Position numbers and translations under genes: made by a program | Part shown: in pieces, positions 5,382-64,000 of the stretch | Layout: each line of letters opens with the position of its first letter | How positions within the stretch are numbered: the first letter of the stretch is position 1 | Notes under the pieces: model-generated | What the model was told of the DNA's origin: nothing | Databases searched by the model: none | The model's input: the letters and a program-made list of their open reading frames with translations, nothing else | Source: Candidatus Wirthbacteria bacterium | GTDB lineage: Bacteria > Patescibacteriota > CG2-30-54-11 | Length of the DNA stretch: 64,000 bases | NCBI GenBank assembly: GCA_903889905.1 | Contig: CAISZI010000005.1 | Location: 9,376-73,375 of the forward strand | Direction of reading: 5' to 3'

Positions 5382-5852
5382 TCAGTTGTTGGCGGCTTTG
5401 ACATTGAAGTAGGCCATGTCTTTGGGCCGCTGAATGAGGAAGGAAAAGGGAACTTCACCCAGTGGTTCGACAGCCTCCAATGGTGTGGCAGCCAGTTCTT
5501 CATAAACGAGTTTATTTTTACTGTCATAGACGCGCAAATCCAGTGAGATCGAGCCATTGAAGGCTTTGGGGGTCATGTTTTTGACCACGCCGACGACTTT
5601 GACCTGGCCAAGCGTTTCTTCAAAAGCCTGGGCTTCTACTTTCCATGCATCCTGCTGTTGGTGAAAGTTTTTGCCAAAGTAAACGTAGACCAGAGCGACA
5701 ATGCCAATGACGGCGATCATGATCAAAAACAAATCAATGATACCCCAGCCTTTAAACAGTTTGGCAACCGGATTCATACGCACTTCTGTGCCGCAGTGTG
5801 GGCAGCGGATTTCTTTTTTGGAAACTTCCTGATGGCAATTTCGACAAGTCAT
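5382..5852 (-). CDS. zinc-ribbon / single-TM membrane protein with DUF4352-like extracytoplasmic beta domain
   Basis: N-terminal CxxC-N13-CxxC motif (CRNC...CPHC), then one TM helix (IIDLFLIMIAVIGIVALVYVYF), then a beta-rich C-terminal domain. Its start lies 2 nt after the atpC stop, so it is probably the last gene of the atp operon. Confidence 0.7.
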   Translation of the reverse strand: MTCRNCHQEVSKKEIRCPHCGTEVRMNPVAKLFKGWGIIDLFLIMIAVIGIVALVYVYFGKNFHQQQDAWKVEAQAFEETLGQVKVVGVVKNMTPKAFNGSISLDLRVYDSKNKLVYEELAATPLEAVEPLGEVPFSFLIQRPKDMAYFNVKAANN

Positions 5853-6111: not shown

Positions 6112-8940
<2,829 letters not shown>

Positions 8941-8944
<4 letters not shown>

Positions 8945-10653
8945 GTTTTCACCTCCAAACTGGTGGCAGCAGGCGCTGGCACAGCGGCATCCGCGGAGGG
9001 CACGGGTTGAGGTTCCACAACCTTTGTCTCAGTATTTTTTTTGTCCTCTTTGGCTTTGTTCTTTTTTTCGTCTTTTTTGTCTGTCTTTTTATTGTCCTTT
9101 TTCCCACCGCCAAACATTCCTTTTTTGGGTGGCGGCGCGTTTTTGGCTGCTTCAGCAGCGGCTTCTGCCGCGAGTTCATCTTCGGTTTTTGGTACTTCCA
9201 GATGGACATTGAATGGCTCAATGATCGGGGCAACGTCCGCCAGAAACTGTTCAATTGCCGGTTTAACAATATCGAGCTTTTTGTCCATGATATCGATGCC
9301 AAGTTGTTTATACTGATCCCGGTGCAGAAAATCACAAAAAGCGGTTTTGGCTTCTCCCACTTTATCCATCTGTAGTTTGTCGAACAGACCTTCGGTAATA
9401 CCGTAGAACATCATGATCTGGTCCGACAGTTTGATCGCCTCATAAATTTTTTGTTTGAGCAGTTCGTAGGCGCGTTCACCGCGGGCAATACGGTTTTTGG
9501 TTTCATCGGCGAGGTCGGTACCAAAGCTGGCAAATGCCTGTGCTTCGCGGTACTGCATGAGGATGCGCTGCACTTTGACGCCCAGTTTTTTGAGCACGTC
9601 CCCTTGGACTTTGCCGCCAAGTCGTGAAACCGAGAGTTCAATCGCGATGGCTGGCATCAGGCCTTTGTTAAACAGTGACATGTCAAACAAAATGTGCCCA
9701 TCCGTGATGCTCAGTACGTTTGTGGCCACGTAACCCGACAAGTCCCGTTCCGCGGCTTCAATCACCGGCAGTGCAGCCATGCTGCCACCGCCGTATTCGT
9801 CGGAGAGCTGTGCAGCGCGTTCGAGGAGGCGGGAATGGATGTAGAAGATGTCGCCGGGGTATGCTTCGCGACCTGGTGGGCGCTTGAGCAGCAGCGCCAT
9901 CTGGCGGTAGGCTTTGGCGTGCTGGCTCAGGTCATCATAGATCATGAGTACGTGCTGTCCCTTGTTCATGAAGTATTCACCAATGGTGCAGCCGGTGTAA
10001 GGCGCGATATAGTTCATGGTCGGGGACATGGCGGCCGTGGCCATGACAATCACGATTTTATCCATGACCCCTTCTTCGGTGAATTTGTTGGCCAGCGTTT
10101 TGATTTGTGCCTGGGGTTTGCCGATAGCGACATAGACGCTGATCACTCCGACTCGGGCGAGATTGATCATGGCGGTAGCGAGTGCGGCAGTTTTTCCCGA
10201 TTTGGCGTCGCCAATAATGGTGGCGCGCTGGCCACGTCCGACAGGCAGCATGCCGTCGATTTGCATAATGCCGGTTTCGAGTTGAACTTTTACGGCTTTA
10301 CGCTGGAAAATCGTGGGAGCAGGACTTTCGATCGGGCGTTTTTCTTCGTATTCCAGCGTTCCTTTGCCGTCTACGGGGACTCCGAGTGGGTTGACGACAC
10401 GGCCGAGCAATGCTTGTCCAACTGGCGCCGAGAGCGGTTGCCCCGTACTTTCCACTTTATCACCACGTTTAACGGCCTGGGCATTACCCAGAATCACGGC
10501 ATGGATATAGTCTTCGTCGAGACGCAGGACCAGGCCATGTGTCCCGCTTTCAAAAATGACTTCTTCTTCCATGGTGGCATGCGGCAGTCCACGAATCAGG
10601 CAGACTGTTTCACCCACTTCTTCAACGGTACCAATTTGTTTGAATTCACTCAT
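8941..10653 (-). CDS. atpA: F1 ATP synthase alpha subunit with ~65-aa Lys-rich C-terminal tail
   Basis: 570 aa with a GDAKSGKT P-loop and alpha-type conservation (PPGREAYPGDIFYIHSRLLERAA). The C-terminus is a K/D/E-rich low-complexity tail. Confidence 0.92.
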
Positions 10654-11282
10654 GAGGCTGCTCCTGGTGCTACGCGCATATCGGTAAATTCGGCTTTCAC
10701 CATCTCGTCGAGGTACTGCATCGTCAATTTGTGGACATTGTCGCGAATGTGTGGCTCAATTTCCTTGAGCCGGGTAATGACGGTATCTTCAAATTCAAAG
10801 GCATCGGCCTGAATGATGACACCGCCAATGATGGACTGGTCCACGGAGATATCAAAAACAAACTGGTATTGGATATGACGGCGTAATTCCTGATGTAACC
10901 AGGAGATGATATTGTCCGGCAAATAATCGGCCAGAGTCAGGTTCACGGAACGGATGGTTTTGACCTGGTTACGCAGCAGGAACAAAAAGGTGGGTTTATC
11001 CTGGTCATCAATCGCCTGAAATAGATTGTGTCGCACCAGCATGCCGAGAAATTTTTGGGCCACAATCGGAATGTTATGTTTTTTGATAAAATTATTCATT
11101 ACATCTTCTTTGGCTTCTACGGCCAGTTTGGCATCAATCAATTTGGGATAGACATTAGGATCGTAATAAATATCCTGTACCATGAGTTCCATGGATTGGG
11201 CCACACCGGTCAGGATCTGGGTAGTATGGATGGTGCTCAGCAGCAAATCGATCAAATCAAGTTTTTCTTTTTGGGTTGCCAT
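10650..11282 (-). CDS. atpH: F1 ATP synthase delta subunit (OSCP) with ~35-aa C-terminal extension
   Basis: 210 aa. The delta C-terminal domain motif IIGGVIIQADAFEFEDTVITRLKEI is present. It overlaps atpA as ATGA, and its start directly abuts the stop of the upstream NHL gene. Confidence 0.85.
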   Translation of the reverse strand: MATQKEKLDLIDLLLSTIHTTQILTGVAQSMELMVQDIYYDPNVYPKLIDAKLAVEAKEDVMNNFIKKHNIPIVAQKFLGMLVRHNLFQAIDDQDKPTFLFLLRNQVKTIRSVNLTLADYLPDNIISWLHQELRRHIQYQFVFDISVDQSIIGGVIIQADAFEFEDTVITRLKEIEPHIRDNVHKLTMQYLDEMVKAEFTDMRVAPGAAS

Positions 11283-12785
<1,503 letters not shown>

Positions 12786-14243
12786 TTACTTAGTCGGTGA
12801 AAGTGGGGGAGAAGGGGATGTCTGAACGATAGCTGATGGCACTGTTGTCGTGGCAAGAGGAAGTTGTGCAGCAGGCGGGAGCACAGCAGTTGGTTGAGAT
12901 GGAGTGCTCGCGGGAGGTTGCGGCACCGTTACTGGTATCGCCGGTGGGGTTATGGCTGCAGCATTTGCTGGCGATGCTTTGAGTTCGTCTTTGAGAGGAA
13001 AATCAGCGGGATTAACAGGCATTGGCACTGTCTGGCTTGCCAGTTTATTCATGTTGGGCTCCAGCCCTTCCACCTTGACAAGTGGTGGATTGGCTGCCGG
13101 CGTTGTAGCAGGAATTTCCGCAGTACCCTCTTGTTTGGCGGGGGCTTTGAGCTGTTTTTTGAGTTTTGCCACAGCATCCATGATTACTTCCTGGTGCTGT
13201 TCAGGACTGAGTGTCAAATTTAAGGATTCTTTAACAACCGAAATCACATACAGCACAATTTCATTTTCAACCTGTTTGAGTACTTTTTCACCAATGCGGC
13301 GGGCACGGTCTTCACTTTGATTGATGATGCTATCCGAGACTTCTTCAAATTTATTCAGTAATTGTTTGTTGAAATCATCAATTTTTTCCCAGGATTTATC
13401 ATTGGCCGAGTTTACAATCTGGCGGATGTCAGCCAGGGCTTTATCGGCGCTCTGCTGGACCGAGGTGGCAATGGCTTGATTGCCCGCTTCGATTCCTTTA
13501 TCGAGGCGCGTTTTTAGTTCGTCAAGGTAACCGTCAAATCCTTTTTGTGCTGTTTCCACGATTGTTTGAGCCGATGCTCCGGCGGTAGTGAGAATCTGGT
13601 CGGCATGCGTTTTGGCCACATTGATGATGGTGTCTTTTTCACCCGTGACTTTTTCCATCATGCTGGCGGCCTGCTCCCGGATTTTGTTGGCGCTACTGCG
13701 GGCGTTATCAACAATTTCAGTTGCCATAGTCTGGGCGGTCTGCATTTTTTCCAGTTCAGTTTTTTGAATTTCTTTGGAGCTGGAGAGAAATTTGTAAAGT
13801 TCCTGGTACAGTTGTTTTTGGGCTGTTTGCAGATCCGTATCCAATTCTTCCTGGAACTTACATAGCGACACTTTGGTTGCAGCGCCAATTTCGGCACTGT
13901 GTTTGGTGAGTTCATCGAGCAGTGTCGTAATGCGCTTGCGATTTTCATCGACGACCGTGTTGGCGTCATCCTGCATTTTTTTAACTTGTGTCTGCAGGTC
14001 GGAATTGGCAAGATACTGCGCTTTTTGCAAAATATGCTTGGCATCTTCGTTAACTTGTTTGTAAACTTCTTCGATATTACTGACCACTTCAAAGATTACC
14101 TTGGAACGGCCTTTTTTTTGGTTATACATACTGATAATACGGGCAATACCCAACCCACCGGCGATTCCCAGAATGCCAGCGGCGACGCTGATGAGGTTGA
14201 CGATAAGGGTTGGAATGGGTTGTGTCATAGGCCTGAAATCCAC
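12786..14243 (-). CDS. N-terminally membrane-anchored long coiled-coil protein with Pro/Thr-rich C-terminus; possible elongated F0 b-subunit analogue
   Basis: 485 aa with one N-terminal TM helix, then about 330 aa of A/Q/E/K-rich heptad-like helix (a pattern like b or b' stalks), then a PT-rich tail. It lies 9 nt upstream of the NHL gene in the same operon. Confidence 0.65.
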   Translation of the reverse strand: MDFRPMTQPIPTLIVNLISVAAGILGIAGGLGIARIISMYNQKKGRSKVIFEVVSNIEEVYKQVNEDAKHILQKAQYLANSDLQTQVKKMQDDANTVVDENRKRITTLLDELTKHSAEIGAATKVSLCKFQEELDTDLQTAQKQLYQELYKFLSSSKEIQKTELEKMQTAQTMATEIVDNARSSANKIREQAASMMEKVTGEKDTIINVAKTHADQILTTAGASAQTIVETAQKGFDGYLDELKTRLDKGIEAGNQAIATSVQQSADKALADIRQIVNSANDKSWEKIDDFNKQLLNKFEEVSDSIINQSEDRARRIGEKVLKQVENEIVLYVISVVKESLNLTLSPEQHQEVIMDAVAKLKKQLKAPAKQEGTAEIPATTPAANPPLVKVEGLEPNMNKLASQTVPMPVNPADFPLKDELKASPANAAAITPPAIPVTVPQPPASTPSQPTAVLPPAAQLPLATTTVPSAIVQTSPSPPLSPTK

Positions 14244-21064: not shown

Positions 21065-22521
21065 CCGACATCCGTGTTCGTATGGCGCCCAGTCCGACCG
21101 GCCTGTTTCATATTGGCAGCGCGCGTACCACACTGTTTAATTACCTCTATGCCAAACGTTATGGGGGCAAATTTATCCTGCGCATCGAAGACACTGACCA
21201 GGCGCGATCCACCCGGGAATTCGAACAAGACATCATCGCTGGCATCCAATGGTTGGGGCTGGATTTTGACGAGGGACCAGGTAAAAGCGGTGAGTTTGGG
21301 CCTTATTACCAAATGCAACGGTTGGACCTCTACCAGCAGACAGCCCAGGAAATGCTGGACAAGAAACTGGCTTATCGTTGTTATTGCACCGCCGCTGAGC
21401 TTGAAGCCGAACGCGAACAGCAACGCCAAAACAAGCAGCCGCCCAAATACAGTGGCAAGTGCCGTCATTTAAGTGCTGCGCAGATTGCTGACTATGAGGC
21501 GGATGGTCGCAGTAGCGTGGTGCGTTTCAGTATGCCGGAGAAAGTTGTCGCGTTCGTTGACCTGATCAAGGGTGAAATCAAAGTGGACATCGGACTTTCG
21601 GGTGATTTGGTCATTCTCAAAACAGATGGCGTGGCGACCTACAATTTTGCCAATGTCGTCGACGATCACTTGATGCGAATCAGCCATGTCATCCGTGGGG
21701 AGGACCACATTTCCAATACACCCAAGCAAATCGTTATGTACGAGGCAATGGGGTGGGAAATACCGCAGTTCGCTCATATTCCGCTCATCCTCAACCAGGA
21801 TCGTTCCAAAATGAGCAAACGTAGCGGCCCAACCTCGGTCACTTCATATCGCGAGGAAGGTTTCTTGCCCGAAGCGCTGGTCAATTTTTTGTCTTTGCTG
21901 GGTTGGTCACCGGGCACGGATCGCGAAATGTTCAGCCTCGCTGACCTGGAGCAAGCTTTTGATGTGACCAAAGTCCAATCCAGTCCGGCGGTTTTTAATA
22001 TGGATAAACTGCTCTGGTTCAATGGCCAGTACTTGCGCTTGCTACCGCAAGCGGACTTGATCAGCCGCTGTCGCCCATATCTGGAGCCACAACTTGGGTA
22101 TTGGAATGAAGCGGTAGAAGGCGCAATTGTGCAGATCATGCCACTCATTTTTGAACGGTTGACCAAATTACAGGATGTCTGGTCTTTGTGCGATTTCTTT
22201 TTTGCTGACAGTGTCGCTTATGATTTGGGATTGATTCAACCGGGGAATAAAACATCGATGGAGTGCCAGCAGGCAATCGAACTATTGATTAAAGAATTGT
22301 TAAATATTCAACATTGGCAGACGCCGGAGATTGAGACAGTGATGCGCGCCGCTGTTGAAACATCGGGCTGGAAAATCGGGGAGCTATTTATGCTGACCCG
22401 TATTGCCGTCACTGGCCGCAAAAATAGCCCGCCTTTGTTTGAAACCATGGCAGTTCTCGGTCAGTCAAAAGTCATTACCCGCCTGCAGGTTGCCCTCAAC
22501 AAATTTTCTCAGCCAAGCTAA
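21061..22521 (+). CDS. gltX: glutamate--tRNA ligase
   Basis: A HIGS-type motif (PSPTGLFHIGSAR) and a KMSKRSG KMSKS motif. It overlaps der as ATGA. Confidence 0.95.
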   Translation: MTDIRVRMAPSPTGLFHIGSARTTLFNYLYAKRYGGKFILRIEDTDQARSTREFEQDIIAGIQWLGLDFDEGPGKSGEFGPYYQMQRLDLYQQTAQEMLDKKLAYRCYCTAAELEAEREQQRQNKQPPKYSGKCRHLSAAQIADYEADGRSSVVRFSMPEKVVAFVDLIKGEIKVDIGLSGDLVILKTDGVATYNFANVVDDHLMRISHVIRGEDHISNTPKQIVMYEAMGWEIPQFAHIPLILNQDRSKMSKRSGPTSVTSYREEGFLPEALVNFLSLLGWSPGTDREMFSLADLEQAFDVTKVQSSPAVFNMDKLLWFNGQYLRLLPQADLISRCRPYLEPQLGYWNEAVEGAIVQIMPLIFERLTKLQDVWSLCDFFFADSVAYDLGLIQPGNKTSMECQQAIELLIKELLNIQHWQTPEIETVMRAAVETSGWKIGELFMLTRIAVTGRKNSPPLFETMAVLGQSKVITRLQVALNKFSQPS

Positions 22522-22537
22522 CCAAACCGAGCGCCGT

Positions 22538-23581
22538 ATGCCAGAGAATAGGCTTGCCAAAGCTTTAGAAAATCAGGTCATAGAGTGCCAGGCCTGTCGC
22601 TTTTTCTGCCACCTCAAACCAGGCCAAACCGGCAATTGTGGTGTACGACAAAACGTCGGTGGCAAACTCAAGTTGCTGGTTGATGGCAGGCCAATAGCAC
22701 TTCACATTGATCCAATCGAAAAGAAACCTCTATACCATTTCCTGCCTGGCAGCCAGATTCTGTCGATTGGCACCGTGGGGTGCAACTTTGGCTGCAGTTT
22801 TTGTCAGAATTGGGATATTTCGCAAGTCACACGTTTGGGTCCCAATATTAAGCATTTTCAGGGATTGGAACTTAACTTTGACCAGATTGGCGATGTGCTA
22901 ACAGCGCACCAAGCTGTGGATTTATGCCTCAAACATCATCTACCGTCGCTTGCTTTTACCTACAACGAACCGACGATTTTCACTGAATATGCCATCAAAA
23001 TAATGAAATTGGCCCGTAAATATGACATCAAGGGGGTTTATGTCAGTAATGGCTATATGACGGAAACGACACTGGATGCCCTGGATGGCTGCATTGATGC
23101 TTACAATATTGACCTCAAGGCTTTTAGCGACGCTTTTTATGCCAAGTTTTGCAAAGCCAGATTGCAGCCCGTGTTGGACTCGATCATGTCTATTTATCAA
23201 CGTGGCAAGTGGCTAGAGCTGACGACGCTGATCATCCCTGGCGAAAACGATGCCAGCGAGGAATTGCGGCAAGCGGCTATGTTCATCGCTGCTCTCAGTC
23301 CTGATATCCCCTGGCATTTAAGTGCGTTTCATCCTGACTTTGAAGTTCAGGATAAAGCCAGGACGCCGCTTAAAACGCTGCAAATGGCATATGATATCGC
23401 CAGGCATGCTGGTTTGCGTTATGTTTACCTGGGCAATGTCAGAGCGCCGCAGGGCAATTCAACGTACTGCCCAAACTGCCAGGCAGTGCTGATTAATCGC
23501 GACGCGGGTGATCTGTCATGTTTCATCCATGAAAATGTCTGTTCGGGTTGTCAAACCATAATTCCTGGAATTTGGAGCTAA
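22538..23581 (+). CDS. amrS: AmmeMemoRadiSam system radical SAM enzyme
   Basis: CNFGCSFCQNW radical-SAM cluster motif plus a C-terminal Cys-rich motif. The start was moved to the ATG at 22538, after the gltX stop. Confidence 0.85.
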   Translation: MPENRLAKALENQVIECQACRFFCHLKPGQTGNCGVRQNVGGKLKLLVDGRPIALHIDPIEKKPLYHFLPGSQILSIGTVGCNFGCSFCQNWDISQVTRLGPNIKHFQGLELNFDQIGDVLTAHQAVDLCLKHHLPSLAFTYNEPTIFTEYAIKIMKLARKYDIKGVYVSNGYMTETTLDALDGCIDAYNIDLKAFSDAFYAKFCKARLQPVLDSIMSIYQRGKWLELTTLIIPGENDASEELRQAAMFIAALSPDIPWHLSAFHPDFEVQDKARTPLKTLQMAYDIARHAGLRYVYLGNVRAPQGNSTYCPNCQAVLINRDAGDLSCFIHENVCSGCQTIIPGIWS

Positions 23582-23584
23582 CCC

Positions 23585-24382
23585 ATGTCAATACGTCAGG
23601 CCGCCGTTGCTGGTAGTTTTTATCCCAAGTCGCAGCAAGCTTTGACCAAATTGCTTGCCGAACTAATGCCTGATCGACCAGCGGCGGTTTTAACACCCAA
23701 GGCCTTGCTGGTGCCGCACGCCGGTTACATCTATTCAGGCCAAACGGCTGGACTTGGTTTTACCAGCCTCCGGCATGCCACCTTTCAGCGCGTGATTTTA
23801 CTCGGGCCTTCGCACCACTTTGGTTTTGATCAGGTGGCCTTACCCAAAGCAGACCATTGGGAAACACCTTTGGGAAAAGTACCGATCGATCGGGAGGCCG
23901 TGGCGGCATTGGCGCAACAAGTTGATTTTATTGTCTCCGACCAAATCCACGCCACAGAGCATGCACTTGAAGTTGAGCTGCCATTTTTGCAACGTGTTTT
24001 GTCCTCATTTGCTTTGGTGCCGCTTTGCCTGGGCCAAAATCTTGATCATCAGTCAATAGCGGCGTCGTTGCTGAGCATACTGGATGAACACTCGATCATT
24101 ATCGTCAGTTCCGACTTGTCGCATTACTTACCTCAGGCTGAGGCCAACCACCTGGATCAGCAAACATTGACTGCTTTTAGGAATTTAGACTCTGCCTTTG
24201 TCTACGACGGTAACGCCGCCTGTGGACTTGAAGGTGTTTTGGTCCTGCTCGAGTTGGCGCGACAGTTGAACTGGAAAGCCGATCTGCTCGATTATCGCAC
24301 CAGTTTTGACATCAGCCAGGATGACCAGCAAGTCGTTGGCTATGCTGCCATGGCGTTTTATCAGCGAAGGCCCGGAAAATGA
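23585..24382 (+). CDS. amrB: AmmeMemoRadiSam system protein B (MEMO1 family)
   Basis: MEMO-like AGSFYP and HAGYIYSG motifs, 265 aa. Confidence 0.85.
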   Translation: MSIRQAAVAGSFYPKSQQALTKLLAELMPDRPAAVLTPKALLVPHAGYIYSGQTAGLGFTSLRHATFQRVILLGPSHHFGFDQVALPKADHWETPLGKVPIDREAVAALAQQVDFIVSDQIHATEHALEVELPFLQRVLSSFALVPLCLGQNLDHQSIAASLLSILDEHSIIIVSSDLSHYLPQAEANHLDQQTLTAFRNLDSAFVYDGNAACGLEGVLVLLELARQLNWKADLLDYRTSFDISQDDQQVVGYAAMAFYQRRPGK

Positions 24383-24945
24383 CACAAAACATCAGCCCAA
24401 CTGATCAACGTTGGTTTTTGGCGCTGGCGCGACGTGCCATCGAGTCCAAATTGCTGCGGCAAAAATTCAGTCTCGACCCCAATACAGTTCCACCCGTTGG
24501 ACGTGCCAAACTGGCGTCATTTGTGACGCTGACCAGACAAGGGGAACTCCGCGGCTGTATTGGACACTTGCTTCCTGTCCAGGTATTGTGGCGGGATATC
24601 GTCGATAACAGTTGTTCCGCCGCTTTCGACGACCCGCGTTTTCAAACGTTGGAAATGTCTGAGCTGAAGGCAATCCAGATTGAAATTTCTGTTTTGAGTC
24701 AGCCAGAGTCATTGCATTGGGGAAGTATTCAAGAATTATTAAAGACATTGCAGGGAACGCAACCGGGTGTCATTCTATCATCCGGACGACAGTCGGCTAC
24801 ATTTTTGCCACAGGTCTGGGGCGAGCTACCGGACGCCATCGATTTTTTGACGCATTTAGCAGATAAGGCAGGTATTGGTTTGCCGTTTGATCCGTCTCAA
24901 ATCAATCTTCAAACTTACCAGGTCACGGCATTTACTGAGCCTTAA
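24379..24945 (+). CDS. amrA: AmmeMemoRadiSam system protein A (AMMECR1 domain)
   Basis: AMMECR1 signature LRGCIGHL. It overlaps amrB by 4 nt. Confidence 0.85.
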   Translation: MTQNISPTDQRWFLALARRAIESKLLRQKFSLDPNTVPPVGRAKLASFVTLTRQGELRGCIGHLLPVQVLWRDIVDNSCSAAFDDPRFQTLEMSELKAIQIEISVLSQPESLHWGSIQELLKTLQGTQPGVILSSGRQSATFLPQVWGELPDAIDFLTHLADKAGIGLPFDPSQINLQTYQVTAFTEP

Positions 24946-35511: not shown

Positions 35512-37593
35512 ATGGATAAACACTACGCCCTGGACAAAGTCCGTAATATCGGCATTATCGCCCATATCGATGCGGGTAAAACTACAACCTCGGAACGGGT
35601 ACTTTTCTACACGGGTAAAACCTATAAAATCGGTGAAGTGCACGATGGCGCCGCGGTTATGGACTGGATGGAACAGGAACGTGAACGCGGCATTACAATC
35701 ACCTCCGCTGCCACCACCTGTTTCTGGCAGGATTGTCGTATCAATCTGATCGACACCCCCGGACATGTTGACTTTACTGCTGAAGTGGAACGCAGCCTGC
35801 GTGTCCTTGATGGTGGGGTAGTGGTCTTTGATGGTGTTTCCGGTGTTGAACCTCAGTCCGAGACTGTCTGGCATCAGGCTACCAAGTATCATGTACCCCG
35901 TATTTGCTTCATCAACAAGATGGACCGTATGGGCGCCAATTTCTATGCCGACGTCGACCAGATCAAAGAACGCCTGGGTGCCAATGCTATCTGCCTGCAA
36001 CTGCCAATTGGTGCGGAAGACAACTTCAAAGGCATGATTGATCTGATCAAAATGAAAGCCATGGTCTACGAAGACGACATGGGTAAAGTAATCAACGAAG
36101 TCGAGATTCCAGCTGACATGGTTGATAAATCCAAAAAACATCGTGAAATCATGCTCGAAGCCGCAGCTGAGCAAGAAGATTCCTTGATGGAAAAATACCT
36201 CAGCGGCGCTGAACTCACAATTGAAGAAATTCATCGTGGCCTGCGCAAAGGTACCATTGCCAACCTGATTGTTCCCGTTCTTTGTGGTTCCTCGCTCAAA
36301 AACAAAGGCGTGCAACAACTTCTGGATGCCGTTGTTTTGTATTTGCCTTCACCTGTTGATGTGCCCCCAGTGGTTGCACACAATATCAAAACGGGCGAAC
36401 CCGTTGAACGTGATGCCAATGATAATGCACCTTTCTCGGCTCTGGCGTTCAAAATTTTTACTGACCCTTTTGTTGGCAAATTGACCTATATCCGTATTTA
36501 TTCCGGCAAATTGACCTCTGGTTCTTATGTTTACAACGCCACCAAGGACGAACGCGAGCGTGTCAGCCGCATGGTGTTAATGCATGCCAACCACCGCGAG
36601 GAAATCGCCGAAATGGGTGCTGGTAACATCTGCGCGCTCGTGGGCCTCAAACAAACCCGCACTGGCGACACCCTCTGTGACGACAAAAATCCCTGCCTGC
36701 TCGAAAATATCGTTTTCCCCGTTCCGGTCATTGATCTCGCAGTTGAACCTAAAACCAAAGCTGACCAGGAAAAAATGGCCATTGGTTTGCAGAAATTGGC
36801 TGAAGAAGATCCTACCTTCAAAGTCAAAACTGACCATGACACTGGGCAGACAATTCTCTCTGGTATGGGGGAACTTCATCTCGATATCCTGATCGACCGC
36901 ATGCGCCGTGAATTCAAAGTGGAAGCCAATGTCGGCAAACCACAAGTCGCCTACAAAGAAGCTTTCCGCAAATCCGCGATGGACGTCGAAGGCAAATTCA
37001 TCAAGCAGTCTGGTGGTAAAGGCCAGTACGGACACGTGGTCATCAACCTCGAACCGCTCGAAGGCCACAAGGGCTTTGAATTTGTCAACAAAATCGTTGG
37101 TGGTATAATTCCCCGTGAATTTATCCCGGGTATTGAAAAAGGCTGCCGTGAGGCCGCCGCCACTGGTGTTGTTGCTGGCTATCCTCTCGAAGGCGCCAAA
37201 GTTACTTTGTTCGATGGTTCCTTTCATGATGTTGACTCCTCCGAAGTTGCCTTCCAGATTGCTGGTTCCATGGCTTTCAAAGAAGCGGTCCGCCGTGCCG
37301 ACCCCTGCCTGCTGGAACCGATCATGAAAGTGGAAGTTGTCACACCCGAAGATTTCCTGGGCGATGTCATTGGCGACCTCAACAGCCGTCGTGGCCAGGT
37401 CATGGGTACTGACACGCGTGGAACCATGCAGGTTATTCGTGGCAATGTGCCCTTAAGCGAAATGTTTGGCTATGCCACTCAACTTCGTTCCATGAGCCAG
37501 GGACGTGCTTCCTTTACCATGGAATTTGATCGTTACGAAGAATTGCCTTCTCATATTTCAACCGAAATCATTGCCAAACGTAAGGTTAATTAA
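35512..37593 (+). CDS. fusA: elongation factor G
   Basis: 693 aa with the G-domain motifs AHIDAGKTT and DTPGHVDF. Confidence 0.97.
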
Positions 37594-37608
37594 GGAGTTT
37601 GAAGCTTA

Positions 37609-37932
37609 ATGGCTAAAAAACAGGAATCCAAACAGCGTATCCGTATCCGTCTCAAAGCGTTTGATCATCGTGTTATTGATCAAAGTGCCATGCAGATTGT
37701 CGAGACTGCTCAACGTACCGGCGCCGTAGTAGCCGGCCCCGTGCCACTGCCTACCAAGATTGCCAAATTCATTGTACAACGGGGAACTTTTGTTGATAAA
37801 GACAGCCGTGAACAATATGAAATGCGGACCCACAAACGCCTGATCGATATCTACGATCCCACGCCTCAGACGATTGATGCTTTGATGCATTTATCGCTGC
37901 CCGCAGGGGTTGGTATTGAGATCAAAATGTAG
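37609..37932 (+). CDS. rpsJ: 30S ribosomal protein S10
   Basis: 107 aa, begins [18 protein letters not shown]. Confidence 0.95.
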
Positions 37933-38079
37933 TTGAATTAGCCCTTGCATTCGTCAGTACCGTTGTGTTATTCTGGTACAGCTTGAATTAAACCGGGTGG
38001 TTTTAAAAGCGTTATACGCCTTGCAAGAAATCCCTATTAGGGACGTGAGGATTTTTCTTTTTTTGTTTGATAAAGAGAC

Positions 38080-38709
38080 ATGAAAACAGCACTTGCAAAA
38101 AAAATTGGAATGACCTCGTTATTTAATGAAAATGGCGCCGTGGATGGTGTAACAGCCCTCCAGATTGATCATTGTGTGGTCAGCCAGATCCGCACCGTTG
38201 ACAATGACGGATACGCCACGGTTCAGCTTGGTTCCGGTCAGAAATTGCATCCCAATCGTCCTTCTACCGGGCATGCCAAAAAAGCGGGCATCGAAAATGC
38301 TCCTCTGGCTTTGCGCGAAGTTCGAATCAGCGCTGCTGATGAGTTTACGCTGGGTCAGGTGATCAATGCCGATATGTTCCAGGTTGGCGATGAAGTCGAT
38401 GTAAGAGGTGTGACCCAGGGTAAGGGGTTTGCCGGTACGATTAAGCGCCACAATTTTGGTCGCGGACCTGAAAGTCATGGTCATGATCATCACCGCGCAC
38501 CGGGTTCCATTGGTGCGTCTGCTCGTCCTGGGCATGTCACCAAAGGCAAACGCATGTCCGGTAGAATGGGTAACGACAATGTGACCATTCAGAATGTTGA
38601 AATTTTGAGAATTGATACGGAAAATAATATCATCTTTGTGCGCGGATCAGTGCCCGGCAAAAAAAATGGCCTGGTTCAGATTCGTCAAGCCATTAAGGGA
38701 AAAGCATAA
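38080..38709 (+). CDS. rplC: 50S ribosomal protein L3
   Basis: 209 aa, begins KKIGMTSLFNENG. Confidence 0.95.
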   Translation: MKTALAKKIGMTSLFNENGAVDGVTALQIDHCVVSQIRTVDNDGYATVQLGSGQKLHPNRPSTGHAKKAGIENAPLALREVRISAADEFTLGQVINADMFQVGDEVDVRGVTQGKGFAGTIKRHNFGRGPESHGHDHHRAPGSIGASARPGHVTKGKRMSGRMGNDNVTIQNVEILRIDTENNIIFVRGSVPGKKNGLVQIRQAIKGKA

Positions 38710-46347: not shown

Positions 46348-46542
46348 ATGGCAGCCAAAGAAATTGGTAAAGTCAAAGTCACTTTAGTCAGAAGTATGGT
46401 GTCGCATCCTGAAGATCAACGCGTTACGCTGCGTGCATTAGGGTTGCGAAAAATCCGCCAGTCGGTCATCAAAGATAATACGCCGTCAATCGCCGGTATG
46501 ATTTTTAAAGTTAAACATTTAGTCGAGGTGGAAGAAGTTTAA
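46348..46542 (+). CDS. rpmD: 50S ribosomal protein L30
   Basis: 64 aa with L30 conservation. Confidence 0.88.
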   Translation: MAAKEIGKVKVTLVRSMVSHPEDQRVTLRALGLRKIRQSVIKDNTPSIAGMIFKVKHLVEVEEV

Positions 46543-57147: not shown

Positions 57148-59076
57148 TTATTCTACCGTTACACTTTTGGCCAGGTTGCGCGGTTTGTCGATGTCGATAC
57201 TTTTGGGGACACTGGTAATGTGGCCAGGCATGGGGTAGACTTTCTGGATGCCTTCAGGCTGGTCAATGCTGAAGCCTTTGTAAAGTGTCACGTAATAAGC
57301 AAAGAGTTGCATTACGAGCGTGCTGACCATAACGCTGATTTCTTCGGACGACGCTGGCTGATAAATGACATGGTCGGCGTGTTTGGCGATTTGGGTGTCC
57401 CCCGCCTGGGCAATGGCCAGAATGTGTGCTTCCCGGGCGCGCATTTCCTGGATATTGCTGAGCATTTTTTTGTAAACACGTCCCTGGGGCACGAGACAGA
57501 CAATCGGGAACCCCGCGTGAATGACGGCATTGGGGCCGTGTTTGAGTTCGCCCGCGGGATAAGCCTCGGCATGGATGTAAGAAAGCTCCTTGAGCTTTTG
57601 CGTTCCTTCCAGGGCGCAGGGATAGTTGACGTCGCGGCCAATGTAGTAAGCACTTTGTTTGTGAATATAAAATGTGGAAAGTTGCGCAATCTGGTCTTCC
57701 AGCTGCAGCGTTTTTTCTAGCGTTTCCGGTAAGGCGGAGAGCTCATCGAGGAAGCCTTGCATCGCAAGCCCTGGATTATTGGTCTGGGCAAAGTAAAGCG
57801 CCATCAGTGCAAGCGTGGTAATCATTGAACTAAATGCCTTGGTCGATGCGACAGAGATCTCGGGGCCTGCCTGAAGATGACAGATGCGATCGACTTCACG
57901 CGTCATGGAACTGCCATGGGCGTTGACGATCCCCACCAAACGAGCAGGATGACTTTCTTTGGCTTTGTGTATGCTGGCGAGGGTGTCGGCAGTCTCGCCA
58001 GATTGACTGACCGCAATCACCAGTGTTTCACCATCGATGACGGGTTCATGATAGCGAAATTCGGAACCGTAAAACATTTCGGCGGTCACTCTACCCCACC
58101 GTTCGAACAGGTATTTGCCGTAGAGGCAGGCGTAAGCGGCTGAGCCACACCCGAGCAGCGTGACTTTGCGGATTTTACGCAAATCCAGTCCATCCAAACC
58201 AAGTGTTGCACCCTCCACGTGATGGTCAATAATCCGACCGGAAAGAACTTGCCGGAGCACATTGGGCGTTTCGTGGATTTCCTTGATCAGGAAATGCGGG
58301 TAACCACCCTTTTCGGCCTGCTCAGCATTCCAGGTAATGGTTCTGGTTTGGAAAGAGATGGCATGCCCTTCGAGATCGGTTACTTTGACGCTGTTGGACT
58401 TGATCGTGGCGACTTCCCCACTCTGGAGATTGTAGACTTCTTTGGTATACGGCAAGATGGCCGGGACATCGGAGGCCACCAGGTTTTCTCCCTGGCCAAT
58501 GCCAATGATCAGTGGATTGTGCATACGGCCGGCGAGTATGGCTTCCGGATGGTCCTGCGAGAAACAAACAATGGAATAGCCGCCTTCGACCTGTCGCAGA
58601 GCCGCACGAAAAGCTTGCTCAAAATGAGCCAGCGTTGGCGCCAGGCCTAATGGCACAACTTTTTGATACTCATGTTCAATCAGGTGAGCCAGGACTTCAG
58701 TATCGGTTTCACTCTGGAATTTGTGGCCGAGCGTGGCCAATTCAGCTTTGACTTCATAATAATTTTCAAAAATACCGTTATGCACCAGTACGATCTTGCC
58801 ACTGCAGTCGGTATGGGGATGAGCATTGCTATCGGACACCCCACCATGCGTGGCCCAACGGGTATGGCCAATGCCAAGCGTGGATCGAATGTCCTTATCC
58901 TGCAAAGAAGTGATCAGATTAACAATTTTGCCTTTTTTCTTGAATATTTTAATCCGATCATCCGAGAGCAAGGCGACACCAGCAGAATCATAACCCCGAT
59001 ATTCGAGCTTGCTGAGTCCTGACAGTAAGATTGGCAGTACCTGTCGTGGGCCTACATAACCAACAATTCCACACAT
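57148..59076 (-). CDS. glmS: glutamine--fructose-6-phosphate aminotransferase
   Basis: N-terminal MCGIVGYVG (Ntn Cys), two SIS domains, and C-terminal ...KSVTVE. Confidence 0.96.
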   Translation of the reverse strand: MCGIVGYVGPRQVLPILLSGLSKLEYRGYDSAGVALLSDDRIKIFKKKGKIVNLITSLQDKDIRSTLGIGHTRWATHGGVSDSNAHPHTDCSGKIVLVHNGIFENYYEVKAELATLGHKFQSETDTEVLAHLIEHEYQKVVPLGLAPTLAHFEQAFRAALRQVEGGYSIVCFSQDHPEAILAGRMHNPLIIGIGQGENLVASDVPAILPYTKEVYNLQSGEVATIKSNSVKVTDLEGHAISFQTRTITWNAEQAEKGGYPHFLIKEIHETPNVLRQVLSGRIIDHHVEGATLGLDGLDLRKIRKVTLLGCGSAAYACLYGKYLFERWGRVTAEMFYGSEFRYHEPVIDGETLVIAVSQSGETADTLASIHKAKESHPARLVGIVNAHGSSMTREVDRICHLQAGPEISVASTKAFSSMITTLALMALYFAQTNNPGLAMQGFLDELSALPETLEKTLQLEDQIAQLSTFYIHKQSAYYIGRDVNYPCALEGTQKLKELSYIHAEAYPAGELKHGPNAVIHAGFPIVCLVPQGRVYKKMLSNIQEMRAREAHILAIAQAGDTQIAKHADHVIYQPASSEEISVMVSTLVMQLFAYYVTLYKGFSIDQPEGIQKVYPMPGHITSVPKSIDIDKPRNLAKSVTVE

Positions 59077-59179
59077 ATTTCATCCTCATTAATGACGAAA
59101 TGAATGGTATTTGATTTGCATCTAGCGCTGGAGATGAACTGCTTTGGGCAATACTTGCGTATTGATTTGGCAGGCATTT

Positions 59180-59350
59180 GACGATGCCAGCAGCACCGGA
59201 AGGTTTCCGCAGATACTCTAAGCACATAATTTGTTAAGTACTTAGGTCCGATCGTCCCCACCGCTTGGTCGGGACCCTTCTCCTCGTCTTCCTCAGGTCA
59301 TGAGCAAGAGGACCACACGCTTGGTTAATGGTTGCTCGGGTGGAATCCTC
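59180..59350 (-). ncRNA. candidate glmS ribozyme in glmS 5' leader
   Basis: The minus-strand RNA contains AAGCGUGUGGUCC...GACC (P1-like), the conserved GAAGACGAGGAG core, and GGUCC-N22-GGACC and UAAGUAC/GUGCUUA helices. It sits in a 290-nt leader between minE and glmS. Confidence 0.5.
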
Positions 59351-59369
59351 CGGAAATGGATAAAAAAAA

Positions 59370-59864
59370 TCAGACGGTTGGGGTGGAAACAGCTGGCGCG
59401 GTACTTGCCGGGGGTGTTGTTTTGGCTTTGCGCTTGGTGGTCGTCGTCGCTTTACGTGCTTTTTTGCCTTTACGGGTTTTACGTTTTTTGGGAGTTTTGA
59501 CAGGGGTTGGATCCGTCAAAGTTTTACCAATAAGTCCTTCTTCGCCTTCTTCGAAATGTGCTTTGGGGGGTACTTCTTTGCGTTTGCCAACCACTTCGGC
59601 GCGTCCACCTTGGATTGGGATGTTGGCAATCAATGAAGTTTGGGCGCCATCACGGGTAACCTTGAGTTCCAGCTCGTCCTTGTTGACTTCCAGGTACTCG
59701 GAAAGTGTTTTGATTAAGTCAGTTTTCATTTCTTCCATGGCGTCTGGTGTGATTTTGATCCGATCCTGCACCAATACCATTTTCAGCCGTTCACTAGCCT
59801 GGTCCGCGGCTTGCGTATCACTGTGTTTAAAAACTTTGACAATCAGTTCCCAGATACTGGCCAT
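59370..59864 (-). CDS. minE: cell division topological specificity factor MinE with ~75-aa Lys/Thr-rich C-terminal tail
   Basis: The N-terminal 90 aa match MinE (ERLKMVLVQDRIKITPDAMEEMKTDLIKTLSEYLEV). It follows minD. Confidence 0.85.
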   Translation of the reverse strand: MASIWELIVKVFKHSDTQAADQASERLKMVLVQDRIKITPDAMEEMKTDLIKTLSEYLEVNKDELELKVTRDGAQTSLIANIPIQGGRAEVVGKRKEVPPKAHFEEGEEGLIGKTLTDPTPVKTPKKRKTRKGKKARKATTTTKRKAKTTPPASTAPAVSTPTV

Positions 59865-59882
59865 ATCGTAATGCTCCTTCTA

Positions 59883-60701
59883 TCAAGCTTTTTTAGAAAA
59901 TGTGTTTCGGATCAACTGCAGCAGTCTTTTGAATCCCGTAGGTTCGGGATCAATCCGCATCAGTGGAACTTCTTCGCCCATAATGCGAAGTGCGATATTC
60001 TGGTAGGCCTGACCGGCGCGCGACGTTTTGTCCAGAATGGCTGGTTCGCCACGGTTGGAAGTTACGACAATATGTTCATCATCGGGAATAATTCCCAGCA
60101 AACTGATGGCAAGAATTTCCAGGACGTCATCCACACTCATCATATCTCCGCGCTTGACCATGTGGGGTTTGATACGGTTGATGATTAAGGTTGGATCTTC
60201 AATCTCTGAAGCCTCCAGCATACCAATGATCCGATCAGCATCGCGAACCGCTGATACTTCAGGAGTCGTAACAATAATTGCCTTGTCCGCACCGGCGATC
60301 GCATTTTTGAAGCCGCGTTCAATGCCAGCCGGTGAATCCACCAGCACAATGTCGTGAGATTTCTTGAGTTCTTCGCAAAGGTCTTTCATCTGTTCGGGAG
60401 TTACAGCAGTCTTGTCACGGGTCTGGGCGGCAGGAAGCAGATAAAGGCTTTCAAAGCGCTTGTCCTTGATCAATGCCTGACGCAGTTTACAAACCCCATC
60501 AATGACATCAACCAGATCGTAGACAATACGATTTTCCAGTCCCATCACCACGTCCAGATTGCGTAATCCAATATCGGCGTCAATGACCACGGTTTTGTTA
60601 CCCAGCAGCGCCAAAGCAGCACCGAGGTTGGCTGTCGTCGTGGTTTTGCCTACGCCACCTTTGCCGGAGGTGATAACAATGACTTTTCCTGTTTTTTTCA
60701 T
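59883..60701 (-). CDS. minD: septum site-determining ATPase MinD
   Basis: Deviant Walker A SGKGGVGKTTT, 272 aa. Confidence 0.95.
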   Translation of the reverse strand: MKKTGKVIVITSGKGGVGKTTTTANLGAALALLGNKTVVIDADIGLRNLDVVMGLENRIVYDLVDVIDGVCKLRQALIKDKRFESLYLLPAAQTRDKTAVTPEQMKDLCEELKKSHDIVLVDSPAGIERGFKNAIAGADKAIIVTTPEVSAVRDADRIIGMLEASEIEDPTLIINRIKPHMVKRGDMMSVDDVLEILAISLLGIIPDDEHIVVTSNRGEPAILDKTSRAGQAYQNIALRIMGEEVPLMRIDPEPTGFKRLLQLIRNTFSKKA

Positions 60702-60721
60702 ATCGGACGTCCTTTTCTAAT

Positions 60722-61153
60722 CTAGCGTTTTTTGCGTTTGGGTAAGTATTGCTGTTTGTGAATGTTGTCATGAAACTTGGCATGATACAGCGGGAAATAC
60801 TTGACCCATTCAATGACAAAGTAGATGGCCATGCCAATCGTGCAACTAAGCGTCAGGAGCATCAGAAAACGCATGGCAAAAAAAGCAATTTGCTCCATAT
60901 CGGATAGCACAAAAAAGGCTCCCAACAGGCCAAGTGTGAGAAAGACGCGAGCGATTTTTTGCCATTCGCGTTTGCGGGTTAGCGTTTTTTTATCGCGTAG
61001 TTTGAATTTTGTCAACAGTAGAATGGCGATCGATATAATTGACAGAAAAGCATAGAAGAAGAGCAAAACCGTGTCATAACGAAACGATTGAACAGGCTGC
61101 ATATCAAAAAGAAGCGGCAGGTTAAACAAGGCTTGGAGCTCGAGGCGCAACAT
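60722..61153 (-). CDS. small polytopic membrane protein (3-4 TM), unknown function, immediately upstream of minD
   Basis: 143-aa hydrophobic ORF with a basic C-terminus, 20 nt upstream of minD on the same strand. Confidence 0.6.
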   Translation of the reverse strand: MLRLELQALFNLPLLFDMQPVQSFRYDTVLLFFYAFLSIISIAILLLTKFKLRDKKTLTRKREWQKIARVFLTLGLLGAFFVLSDMEQIAFFAMRFLMLLTLSCTIGMAIYFVIEWVKYFPLYHAKFHDNIHKQQYLPKRKKR

Positions 61154-61178
61154 GCAAAACTCCTAATACGTGGGTTGG

Positions 61179-61643
61179 TTAAACGTCCTTGACAACGGCT
61201 TCGTGGTGAGAAGAATGACCACAAAAAGGGCAGATTTTGAATTTTTTATCAATCACTTTGTTGCACTTGGCGCAGGTCTCTTTGACCTTGGTTTTGCAGT
61301 TGGGGCAGTAAACATAGTCGGTTTCCAGACCTTTGCGGCAGCTGGGGCAAAGCAGCAGTTCCCCCACTTCCTGGCGCATGATTTTTTCATCCAGAAGAAG
61401 CAAGCGGCGCTCGTCGAGTGTGTGACCTGGTCGGATAAAGCCATAGACAATCAAGCCAAGCAAAGGGAAAAGGATAACACAGGCAATGCTCAGGATCTGC
61501 AAAACGACATTTTTGGAGCGGTTGAAGATATCCTGGTACACCCAGAAAACAGAAGCGATCCAAAGGCTAAGAAAGGCCACTCCAAAGAAAATCAAGCTAA
61601 AAATCACCGGTTTGGATGTAAACAGTCCACCAAAATTGAGCAT
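61179..61643 (-). CDS. 2-TM membrane protein with C-terminal double zinc ribbon (4x CxxC)
   Basis: 154 aa with CPSC...CPNC...CAKC...CPFC after two TM helices. It heads the putative operon with minDE. Confidence 0.7.
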   Translation of the reverse strand: MLNFGGLFTSKPVIFSLIFFGVAFLSLWIASVFWVYQDIFNRSKNVVLQILSIACVILFPLLGLIVYGFIRPGHTLDERRLLLLDEKIMRQEVGELLLCPSCRKGLETDYVYCPNCKTKVKETCAKCNKVIDKKFKICPFCGHSSHHEAVVKDV

Positions 61644-61713
61644 AACAATCTCCTCAAGGGATTAAACACCGACAGTAATCTAACAAGAAGGATTTGAGTT
61701 GTAAACAGGAAGG

Positions 61714-64000
61714 TTAGAGTTCAGCGATGGCAGAGACCGTAGCGACTTCATCGCCTGCGTTGAGTCGCATCAGACGCACGCCCTGAGTGGCGCGGGCCAG
61801 CACATTGACCTGTTTGAACGGTAAGCGAATCACCTGGCCGGCATTGGAGATAATCACCAGGTCTTCAACACTGTCATCGGTCACGATCGAAGCCGCGATG
61901 ATGCCGGTTTTGGTCGTCAGATTGGCGGTTTTAACACCTTTGCCACCGCGGTTCTGGCAGGGATACTGGCTGACGACGGTGGATTTACCATAACCTTTGT
62001 TGGTGATGATGCAGACCTTCTGGTGCTGTTCATCGGGGTTAACAATGGACATGGAATTGACACGGTCGCCGGCAACGAGACGAATACCGTGGACACCGGT
62101 AGAACCGCGTCCCATCGCCCTGGCATCCGCTTCATCAAAACGAATCGAGAGGCCTTTGTCAGTGACCATGAGAATATGCTGTTTGCCATTGGTCAGTTTG
62201 ACTGAGGCGAGTTCGTCTTTGTCCCGCAAATTAATGGAAATGATCCCTGAATTACGGATATGTTCATATTCATTCAGAGGAGTTTTCTTGATGACGCCAC
62301 TGCGGGTGGCAAAAATCAGGTATTTATCCGGTTCTTTGAGGTTATCAATGCCCAGCACGCTTTGCACCAATTCACCCTGTTCCACCTGGAGCAAATTGAC
62401 AATAGCCTGACCTTTGGCGGTGCGACTGGCTTCAGGGACTTCGTAAGCTTTGAGACGAAAAACTTTGCCACGATTGGTAAAGAAGAGCAGATTGGCATGC
62501 GTTGAACACACCAGCAGATGTTCAACCACGTCTTCTTCTTTGGTGGGCATGCCAATGATGCCTTTGCCGCCACGGCCTTGGGAATGGTAGGTGTCGAGTG
62601 TCATGCGTTTGATATAGCCACCATGGGTAATGGCAATATAGACGTTTTCGTCCTCGATCAGGTCTTCTTCATTGAAATCGCCAACTGCCGACGGGACAAC
62701 GACGGTGCGACGTTCGTCGCCATAGAGTTCGGTCACATCGACAAGTTCTTTTTTGATAATGCTCATGATTTTGTGCGGGTTGGCCAGAATGTCGCGTAGT
62801 TTTAAAATCAAGGCGTTAATTGCGGTGTATTCGTCCTCGATTTTTTGGCGTTCCAAAGCAGCCAGACGACGTAACTGAATCTCAAGGATGGCGTTCGCCT
62901 GAAGTTCACTGAGATTGAATTTGTTCATCAGGTTCTGACGGGCTTCTTCGACCGGTCCGGAAGCGCGGATGGTGGCAATCACTTCATCGAGATTGTCGAG
63001 CGCGATCTTTAGTCCTTCGAGAATGTGGGCACGGGCGCCGGCTTCGTCGAGTTCGAACTGGGTGCGACGGGTAATGACATCTTTGCGGTGGTCAATAAAG
63101 TGCTGCAAAATCTGGCGCAGGTGCATTAATTTGGGTTGTTTGCCATCCACCAATGCCAGCATGTTGTAGTTGAAATTAAGTTGCAGCTGGGTGTGTTTAA
63201 AAAGTTGATTGAGAACAACCTTGGGAATGGCATCGCGTTTGAGTTCAATCACGACGCGCATACCATGGCGGTCACTTTCGTCACGCAGGTCGGAGATGCC
63301 TTTGATTTTTTTGTCTTTGACCAGATCGGCAATGCGGGTGACGAGGACGGCCTTGTTGACCTGATATGGAAGTTCCGTGACGATGATGGCGTTTTTGCTG
63401 GACGACACTTCCTCAATACTGGTTTTGGCACGCATGGTTACGCTACCGCGACCATTGATGTAAACATTGACGATGTCGTTTTGGTTAAAAATAAACCCAC
63501 CGGTTGGGAAATCCGGGCCTTTGATGAATTCCAGCAATTCTTCGATACGGGCGCCGGGGTTGTCAATCAAATAGGCGATCGCGTCAACCACTTCTCCCAA
63601 ATTGTGCGGTGGGATGTTGGTGGCCATACCCACGGCAATACCCGATGTGCCATTGACGAGAAGAGCGGGAATTTTAGAAGGTAAAACCGCGGGTTCCTTT
63701 TCAGAACCATCATAGTTGTCTACCCAGTTGACGGTGTTTTTCTTGATATCGGTAAGCAGTTCGCTGGTAATGGGGGCCATCCGGCATTCGGTATAACGCA
63801 TGGCAGCGGCGTTGTCCCCGTCGACGGAACCAAAGTTCCCCTGGCCATCAATGAGCGGATAGCGCATGGAAAAATCCTGGGCCATACGAACCAGGGTGTC
63901 ATAAATGGCCGCATCGCCATGCGGGTGGAATTTGCCCATGACTTCACCGACGACTTTGGCGCATTTCTGGTATTTGGCTTTGGCACTCAGACCCATTTCA
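61714..64000 (-). CDS. gyrA: DNA gyrase subunit A, C-terminal ~760 aa (N-terminus beyond window end)
   Basis: GyrA conservation ([26 protein letters not shown]) and a GyrA-box QNRGGKG in the C-terminal beta-pinwheel. The ORF runs off the window. Confidence 0.93.

Follow-up and report, generated by a model that had tools for sequence, protein, structure and literature searches.

In bacterial Min systems MinC is considered to provide the output. Among the described systems that come closest to the one presented here, the Escherichia coli type (MinCDE) is encoded in the minB operon with minD followed by minE. The Bacillus subtilis type (MinCDJ/DivIVA) is devoid of MinE and has MinJ, a large multi-transmembrane (TM) PDZ protein, as partner of MinD. 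In plastids MinD and MinE work with the lineage-specific non-MinC partners ARC3 and MCD1, the latter being a membrane protein. In Synechococcus elongatus minD and minE are found without an adjacent minC, which is located elsewhere in this organism (PMC7766704). Here, we describe a Min locus of Candidatus Wirthbacteria bacterium on a stretch of 64,000 nucleotides (nt) of contig CAISZI010000005.1 (assembly GCA_903889905.1, positions 9,376 to 73,375), which is called the window throughout. In this locus minD and minE are preceded by the genes of two small membrane proteins, P1 and P2, and minC is missing. This variant of a Min locus is real, conserved and previously undescribed. It occurs in an uncultivated lineage whose ribosomal proteins form single-member clusters at 90% identity, which means that the lineage is poorly sampled. 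The locus is a testable lead and falls short of a proof that MinC has been replaced.

The four genes in question are all encoded on the minus strand in the order P1 (61179..61643; 154 amino acids, aa), P2 (60722..61153; 143 aa), minD (59883..60701; 272 aa) and minE (59370..59864; 164 aa), and together with their neighbours the open reading frames (ORFs) are read as gyrA, P1, P2, minD, minE and glmS. The spacer between gyrA and P1 comprises 70 nt and is followed by spacers of 25 nt (P1–P2), 20 nt (P2–minD) and 18 nt (minD–minE), which are too short to hold promoters inside the operon. Each of the four genes is preceded by a Shine–Dalgarno sequence (GAGGAG for P1 and TAGGAG for P2). In the gyrA–P1 spacer a promoter scan, followed by reading of the sequence, detected a minus-strand promoter (61677..61705) with the -35 element TTTACA, a spacer of 17 nt and the extended -10 element TGTTAGATT. 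The pattern TTTACA-N17-TGnTAnATT is kept in 8 of 8 aligned relatives, in which the core bases are invariant and the remaining spacer is variable. A second, weaker promoter-like match within P2 (61077–61049) is at chance level. From the short spacers, the Shine–Dalgarno sequence of each gene and the conserved promoter upstream of P1 it follows that P1, P2, minD and minE constitute one operon, transcribed from an extended -10 promoter located just 3′ of gyrA. A first-pass annotation, made by a model from the letters of the window, had already proposed this four-gene operon. Both its extent and the gene identities proved to be correct, since all ORFs lie at these coordinates and MinD, MinE and the zinc ribbon of P1 are recognised by Pfam or NCBIfam models.

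Judged by their domains, MinD and MinE are canonical and share their essential features with the E. coli type. MinD reaches 406.7 bits with the bacterial-type model TIGR01968 (minD_bact; cut-off 212.9, E = 3.8e-122), has the deviant Walker A motif GKGGVGKT and aligns over 245 residues with the Aquifex MinD of the MinC–MinD co-structure entries 4V02 and 4V03. The amphipathic membrane-targeting helix at its C-terminus (59892..59936, minus strand; about residues 256–270, GFKRLLQLIRNTFSK) is also typical; the helix GFKRLLQLIRNTF reaches a hydrophobic moment of up to 2.26, and an equivalent one is found in the relatives L088 and L106. With this helix MinD has its own means of membrane attachment, and for this reason the proposal of the first-pass annotation that P1 or P2 might serve as MinD anchors was rejected as unnecessary. 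The MinE core (59595..59864, minus strand; residues 1–90) comprises the N-terminal amphipathic segment MASIWELIVKVFK, the contact segment RLKMVLVQDR and the topological-specificity domain; the domain is matched over residues 10–85 by PF03776 (E = 2e-19) and by TIGR01215 (60.6 bits, cut-off 49.3). The gene order minD–minE is likewise that of E. coli, whereas the operon of the window differs in the lack of minC, in the two genes for membrane proteins found instead and in a polybasic C-terminal tail of 74 aa on MinE. In comparison with B. subtilis the occurrence of a membrane protein beside MinD is a common feature, but the clade described here has MinE, and neither P1 nor P2, both small proteins, is related to MinJ. 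For Synechococcus, which shares the minDE pair without adjacent minC, genes like P1 or P2 were not reported. The likeness to plastids is an analogy only; neither in sequence nor in fold was a similarity of P1 or P2 to a characterised protein found.

The position occupied by P1 and P2 was compared with the best 80 MinD loci from named genomes among the matches listed, all with at most 73% identity to the MinD of the window. From the genome-collection matches listed for MinD, members of the clade classified in GTDB may be missing. A hidden Markov model (HMM) of the C-terminal domain of MinC, built from 76 minC genes, located minC directly upstream of minD in 76 of these 80 loci, which belong mostly to Bacillota but also to Anaerolineae and Herpetosiphonaceae, and in none of the 80 was P1 or P2 present. 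Applied to the six-frame ORFs of the 64 kb window and of 55 kb of related loci, the same HMM gave no hit even at E ≤ 10, in agreement with the earlier statement that MinC is not encoded at this locus; both stretches together represent a small fraction of a genome. This means that P1 and P2 replace minC in position. DivIVA-like or MinJ-like proteins were not found among the scanned ORFs of the window either, and in the literature we found no systematic survey of MinDE lineages lacking MinC.

Context look-ups together with a metagenome scan, which used an alignment of six sequences, revealed the order gyr(B)A–P1–P2–minD–minE not only in the window but also in the loci L086, L088, L089–092, L093/L094/L108, L095, L102 and L106. 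All linked loci that reach far enough downstream carry minD and minE. Counted by lineage, this gene order and the promoter are shared by about six metagenomic lineages. The first-pass annotation would have given up its proposal if the two small genes were not conserved beside minD and minC lay elsewhere; they are kept next to minDE in every readable relative, together with the promoter. In independent metagenome contigs the identity to the proteins of the window amounts to 46–63% for P1, 30–38% for P2 and 72–82% for MinD, and since the arrangement P1–P2–minD–minE was found again in these contigs, it is not a product of chance. The operon-linked MinD proteins are monophyletic in a tree of 91 MinD sequences made by neighbour joining. 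They are 68–82% identical among themselves and, among the matches listed, 63–73% identical to MinD of Bacillota; judged from these values, the clade is as deep as its distance to the Bacillota proteins. The outer flanks vary, with genes for Big_5 or FtsX proteins upstream, a gene of the haloacid dehalogenase (HAD) type before glmS and genes for an M29 peptidase or RNase T beyond.

P1 is a 2-TM protein with two hydrophobic segments (residues 6–37 and 43–73, according to hydropathy) and a juxtamembrane helix, and it carries a double zinc ribbon at its C-terminus. Its TM hairpin (61425..61628, minus strand; residues 6–73) resembles small 2-TM proteins of the PLDc_N type, but the match is weak and under the threshold (PF13396, 15.2 bits, cut-off 23.3); with 22.8 bits, a distant homologue encoded in L099 remains just below the same cut-off. 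The ribbon (61221..61349, minus strand; residues 99–141) contains four CxxC motifs, CPSC, CPNC, CAKC and CPFC, starting at residues 99, 113, 124 and 138, and is recognised by the Pfam model DZR (PF12773) with 34.6 bits at a cut-off of 27.3 (E = 2.1e-8). The first-pass description as a 2-TM protein with four CxxC motifs was thus accurate. Ten residues are invariant across eight P1 homologues, namely P12, D38, R42, P60, G63, R71, P72, T75, R79 and R90, and the invariant parts are confined to the TM hairpin, the one part of P1 that is kept in all homologues, and to the helix beside the membrane. A structure prediction of P1 alone from four sequences was unusable, with a predicted local distance difference test (pLDDT) value of 58. 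To our knowledge, no function has been characterised for proteins that combine a PLDc_N-like hairpin with a DZR domain. Another zinc-ribbon membrane protein is encoded in the window on the minus strand (5382–5852; 156 aa), in which a single zinc ribbon (CRNC...CPHC) at the N-terminus is followed by one TM helix and probably by a domain on the outside. Its existence had been taken as a sign that such proteins recur in this DNA; the protein is real, but its different architecture shows that it is unrelated to P1, and the recurrence is a coincidence.

P2 is a member of a 3-TM family without a name. Three hydrophobic segments are found in its sequence, and three long helices (residues 27–51, 55–86 and 94–136) are present in its AlphaFold2 model (mean pLDDT 88), which narrows the earlier estimate of three to four TM segments down to three. 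Typical motifs are LF..LFD..PP close to the N-terminus, FFAMRF in the third TM segment and a C-terminal cytoplasmic tail with YLPKRKKR. Loop 1 has a net charge of +6, as has the C-terminal tail, and this distribution of charges suggests that the N-terminus lies outside, the C-terminus inside and that the basic loop is cytoplasmic. Against Pfam and NCBIfam the protein of the window obtained no family match, with nothing better than E = 0.009, and a scan of 20 family members against the family libraries revealed no consistently common family. A Foldseek comparison of the model with folds in the PDB remained equally without match (top E = 1.7). A word-indexed homologue search returned only the query itself, whereas an exhaustive HMMER search recovered 46 cluster representatives with lengths of 130–163 aa throughout, which share LF..LFD..PP at the N-terminus, FFSMRF in the last TM helix and KYLPKKKK at the end. 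P2 was also considered as a form of MreD, FtsL or MinJ and these identities were ruled out, as there is no similarity to any of them. Thus, an unnamed 3-TM family of about 46 cluster representatives is now defined that pairs with a PLDc_N-like hairpin protein, and this result holds even if minC is located elsewhere.

The genes P1 and P2 share 4 nt in L088 and L108 and 17 nt in L102. Such overlaps suggest translational coupling, and from its frequency P1 and P2 probably form a heteromeric complex. Both genes are also adjacent in the distant loci L096, L099/L100 and L101. In the high-GC lineages represented by L096, L099 and L100 the block comprises lgt, a P1-like gene (118 aa, zinc ribbon absent), a P2-like gene, corA, a gene for a large membrane protein and the enolase gene. 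One distant protein of the P2 family carries the NCBI label Patescibacteria.

The low-complexity tail of MinE (59370..59594, minus strand, including the stop codon) had been pointed out before as unusually basic, which is borne out. Its 74 residues include 15 K, 14 T and 9 P and are also rich in A; the net charge is +14. In the clade the tail comprises 99 aa in L102 and 111 aa in L106, with minimum lengths of 24 and 35 aa for partial copies, in contrast with a median of 5 residues past the domain for 79 MinE proteins taken from named genomes. In every readable member of the clade it is rich in lysine, but its sequence cannot be aligned between lineages. The tail is therefore a compositional trait of the clade, and with it a lineage-specific variant of MinE with a long polycationic tail is described, irrespective of whether minC exists elsewhere. 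An independent instance of a long charged MinE tail (111 aa, rich in K and E) is found in a metagenome-assembled genome of an uncultured Clostridium sp. (L074; CANONT010000015.1, 6810–7445), where a gene for a penicillin-binding protein (PBP) is followed by minD and minE without adjacent minC.

How these components could work together can be outlined from family membership. ATP-bound MinD dimers would bind to the membrane via their own C-terminal amphipathic helix, and MinE, which has a membrane-targeting sequence at its N-terminus and a contact helix, would trigger ATP hydrolysis and the release of MinD, so that the cycle of both proteins would yield a self-organised pattern at the membrane. 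In the clade the P1–P2 module, sitting in the slot of minC and presumably co-produced with MinDE, would be linked at the membrane to the pattern of MinD, serving as its cargo or effector and not as an anchor. The polybasic tail of MinE may tune the pattern through an additional electrostatic attraction to anionic membrane or to DNA. In vitro, MinDE patterns unrelated membrane proteins as well as FtsA-anchored FtsZ without MinC (PMC6158289, PMC9262947), which makes an output independent of MinC mechanistically plausible. Taken jointly, a membrane complex of P1 and P2 with a functional link to the MinDE pattern is our tentatively preferred explanation, with a probability of about 0.4.

Several observations weigh against such a coupling, and they fit with another explanation that is nearly as likely, namely that P1 and P2 are a housekeeping membrane module unrelated to Min, that their gene order has been inherited and that MinC is encoded elsewhere and acts in a classical MinCDE system. 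The linkage of P1–P2 to minDE is seen inside one organismal clade only, and gyrBA and glmS are conserved as neighbours to the same degree, which renders inherited synteny inseparable from selection. Moreover, the order lgt–P1-like–P2-like–corA...eno of L096 and L099/L100 is free of min genes, and P2 is found without them next to mnmA in L103 and between a methyltransferase gene and UPF0102–nusA in L104/L105. These distant contexts point to P1–P2 (or P2 alone) as an older, self-standing module that does not depend on MinD in general. When the MinD proteins of the clade were compared at those positions with a conservation of 85% or more among the 76 minC-linked MinD proteins, only one consistent change, from T to S at residue 215 of the window protein, appeared, with the E. 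coli numbering of this comparison taken from a manually entered sequence. Thus, as far as can be judged from sequence, the surface of MinD is without sign of a new binding site, and it is unchanged also in the helix-7 residues, which in E. coli MinD are reportedly used by MinC (Wu et al. 2011). The zinc ribbon of P1, predicted to be cytoplasmic, is kept in five of seven lineages of the clade, but it is lost in L102 and L106 and must, by this pattern, be considered dispensable. As to MinC, its gene is not adjacent in four of the 80 nearest MinD loci either (PBP–minD–minE) and is encoded apart from minDE in Synechococcus (PMC7766704), and both cases caution against taking a locus without minC as the sign of a genome without it. 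On the other hand, mere inheritance of gene order has to account for the tight spacing (15–50 nt) and the single conserved promoter upstream of P1 in lineages whose MinD proteins are divergent at phylum level, for a block that stayed intact although its flanks were rearranged, and for the lack of any MinC-like ORF in the 64 kb and 55 kb of clade DNA, small as this fraction of a genome is. The idea from the first-pass annotation that P1 and P2 are novel partners of MinD is in a similar position: their conservation beside minDE speaks for it, while the P1–P2 pairs without min genes, the unchanged MinD surface and the loss of the ribbon in two lineages speak against it.

Within the preferred explanation of a P1–P2 complex coupled to the MinDE pattern, a narrower and rather unlikely case is that MinC has been lost and that P1–P2 is an effector recruited by MinD, which blocks the assembly of FtsZ or of the divisome where MinD concentrates. 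The exact placement in the minC slot, which minC itself occupies in 76 of the 80 nearest relatives, the conserved operon, the availability of the basic cytoplasmic loop and tail of P2 and of the ribbon and helix of P1 for contacts, and the plastid precedent of ARC3 and MCD1 are all consistent with it, but the module exists elsewhere without MinDE, the ribbon can be missing, MinD exhibits no adaptive change, and P1 and P2 are not similar to any FtsZ-binding protein. To the complete picture of a clade without MinC, in which a membrane heterocomplex of P1 and P2 is the MinD-coupled effector of division positioning and the tail of MinE retunes the oscillator, we attach an equally low probability. 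Least probable appears an effector-free or re-purposed MinDE that directly excludes membrane-bound division proteins or aids the segregation of the nucleoid, with the MinE tail as the key element and with P1–P2 as bystanders. The ability of Min waves to pattern FtsA–FtsZ and other membrane proteins in vitro without MinC (PMC9262947, PMC6158289) is in its favour, as is the clade-specific, long and Lys-rich tail, cationic at +14. This tail, however, is conserved in composition only, the Clostridium genome mentioned above has a comparable K/E tail, and unrelated proteins of the window bear similar low-complexity extensions. The latter are found on AtpA, AtpD and one more protein and therefore seem to reflect a general tendency of this genome, of which the MinE tail may be a part; this weakens also the role that the tail would have in the coupling of P1–P2 to the MinDE pattern.

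If P1 and P2 indeed substitute for MinC, a membrane-embedded replacement of this protein would be seen here for the first time in a bacterial Min system. More generally, if MinC proves to be absent from the genomes of the clade, they would offer a natural case of MinDE driving another effector, an idea that has so far been based mainly on reconstitution in vitro and on plastids.

The neighbours on both sides of the operon are encoded on the minus strand as well. Upstream of P1, outside the operon, gyrA (61714..63996) is conserved and runs past the end of the window, and gyrB–gyrA is located 5′ of P1 in L086, L106 and L108, the last of which belongs to assembly GCA_964406175.1. On the other side, glmS (57148..59076) is the conserved 3′ neighbour of minE at a distance of 293 nt and probably represents a separate transcription unit. 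The same gene follows minE in L102 and, with a HAD hydrolase gene in between, in L106. In the minE–glmS spacer (59077–59369, 293 nt) no Rfam match was obtained, the glmS ribozyme included, although glmS lies directly 3′ of it, and Rfam elements were not found elsewhere near the operon. A run of eight T begins immediately past the stop codon of minE.

Clues to the lineage of this DNA are spread over the regions 952–1647, 2296–4209, 35512–38080 and 46348–46542 of the window. HrcA is unusually short with 231 aa and is matched by its model in two pieces. In the N-terminal quadrant of DnaK there is the long insert that characterises diderm phyla. The window also encodes ribosomal protein L30, a point against a classical member of the CPR, and tuf is absent between fusA and the S10 operon. 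Comparisons with the PDB place L2 closest to Firmicutes and EF-G closest to Thermus and are uninformative on the lineage.

Two further gene clusters deserve mention. An unusual F1-type ATPase cluster on the minus strand (6112–14243) starts with atpD, which has an N-terminal extension of 190 aa rich in P, A and T, followed by atpG and by atpA with a K-rich C-terminal extension of roughly 100 aa. Then follow a delta/OSCP-like gene and genes for an NHL-repeat protein and for a coiled-coil b-like protein of 485 aa with a tail rich in P and T; beside the cluster no gene for an a or c subunit was recognised. The alpha and beta subunits score well, yet below the cut-off, with models of the F1-like ATPase of Mycoplasma gliding. 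The region 22403–24945 contains a complete three-gene AmmeMemoRadiSam system that consists of a radical SAM enzyme, a MEMO1-like protein B and AMMECR1.

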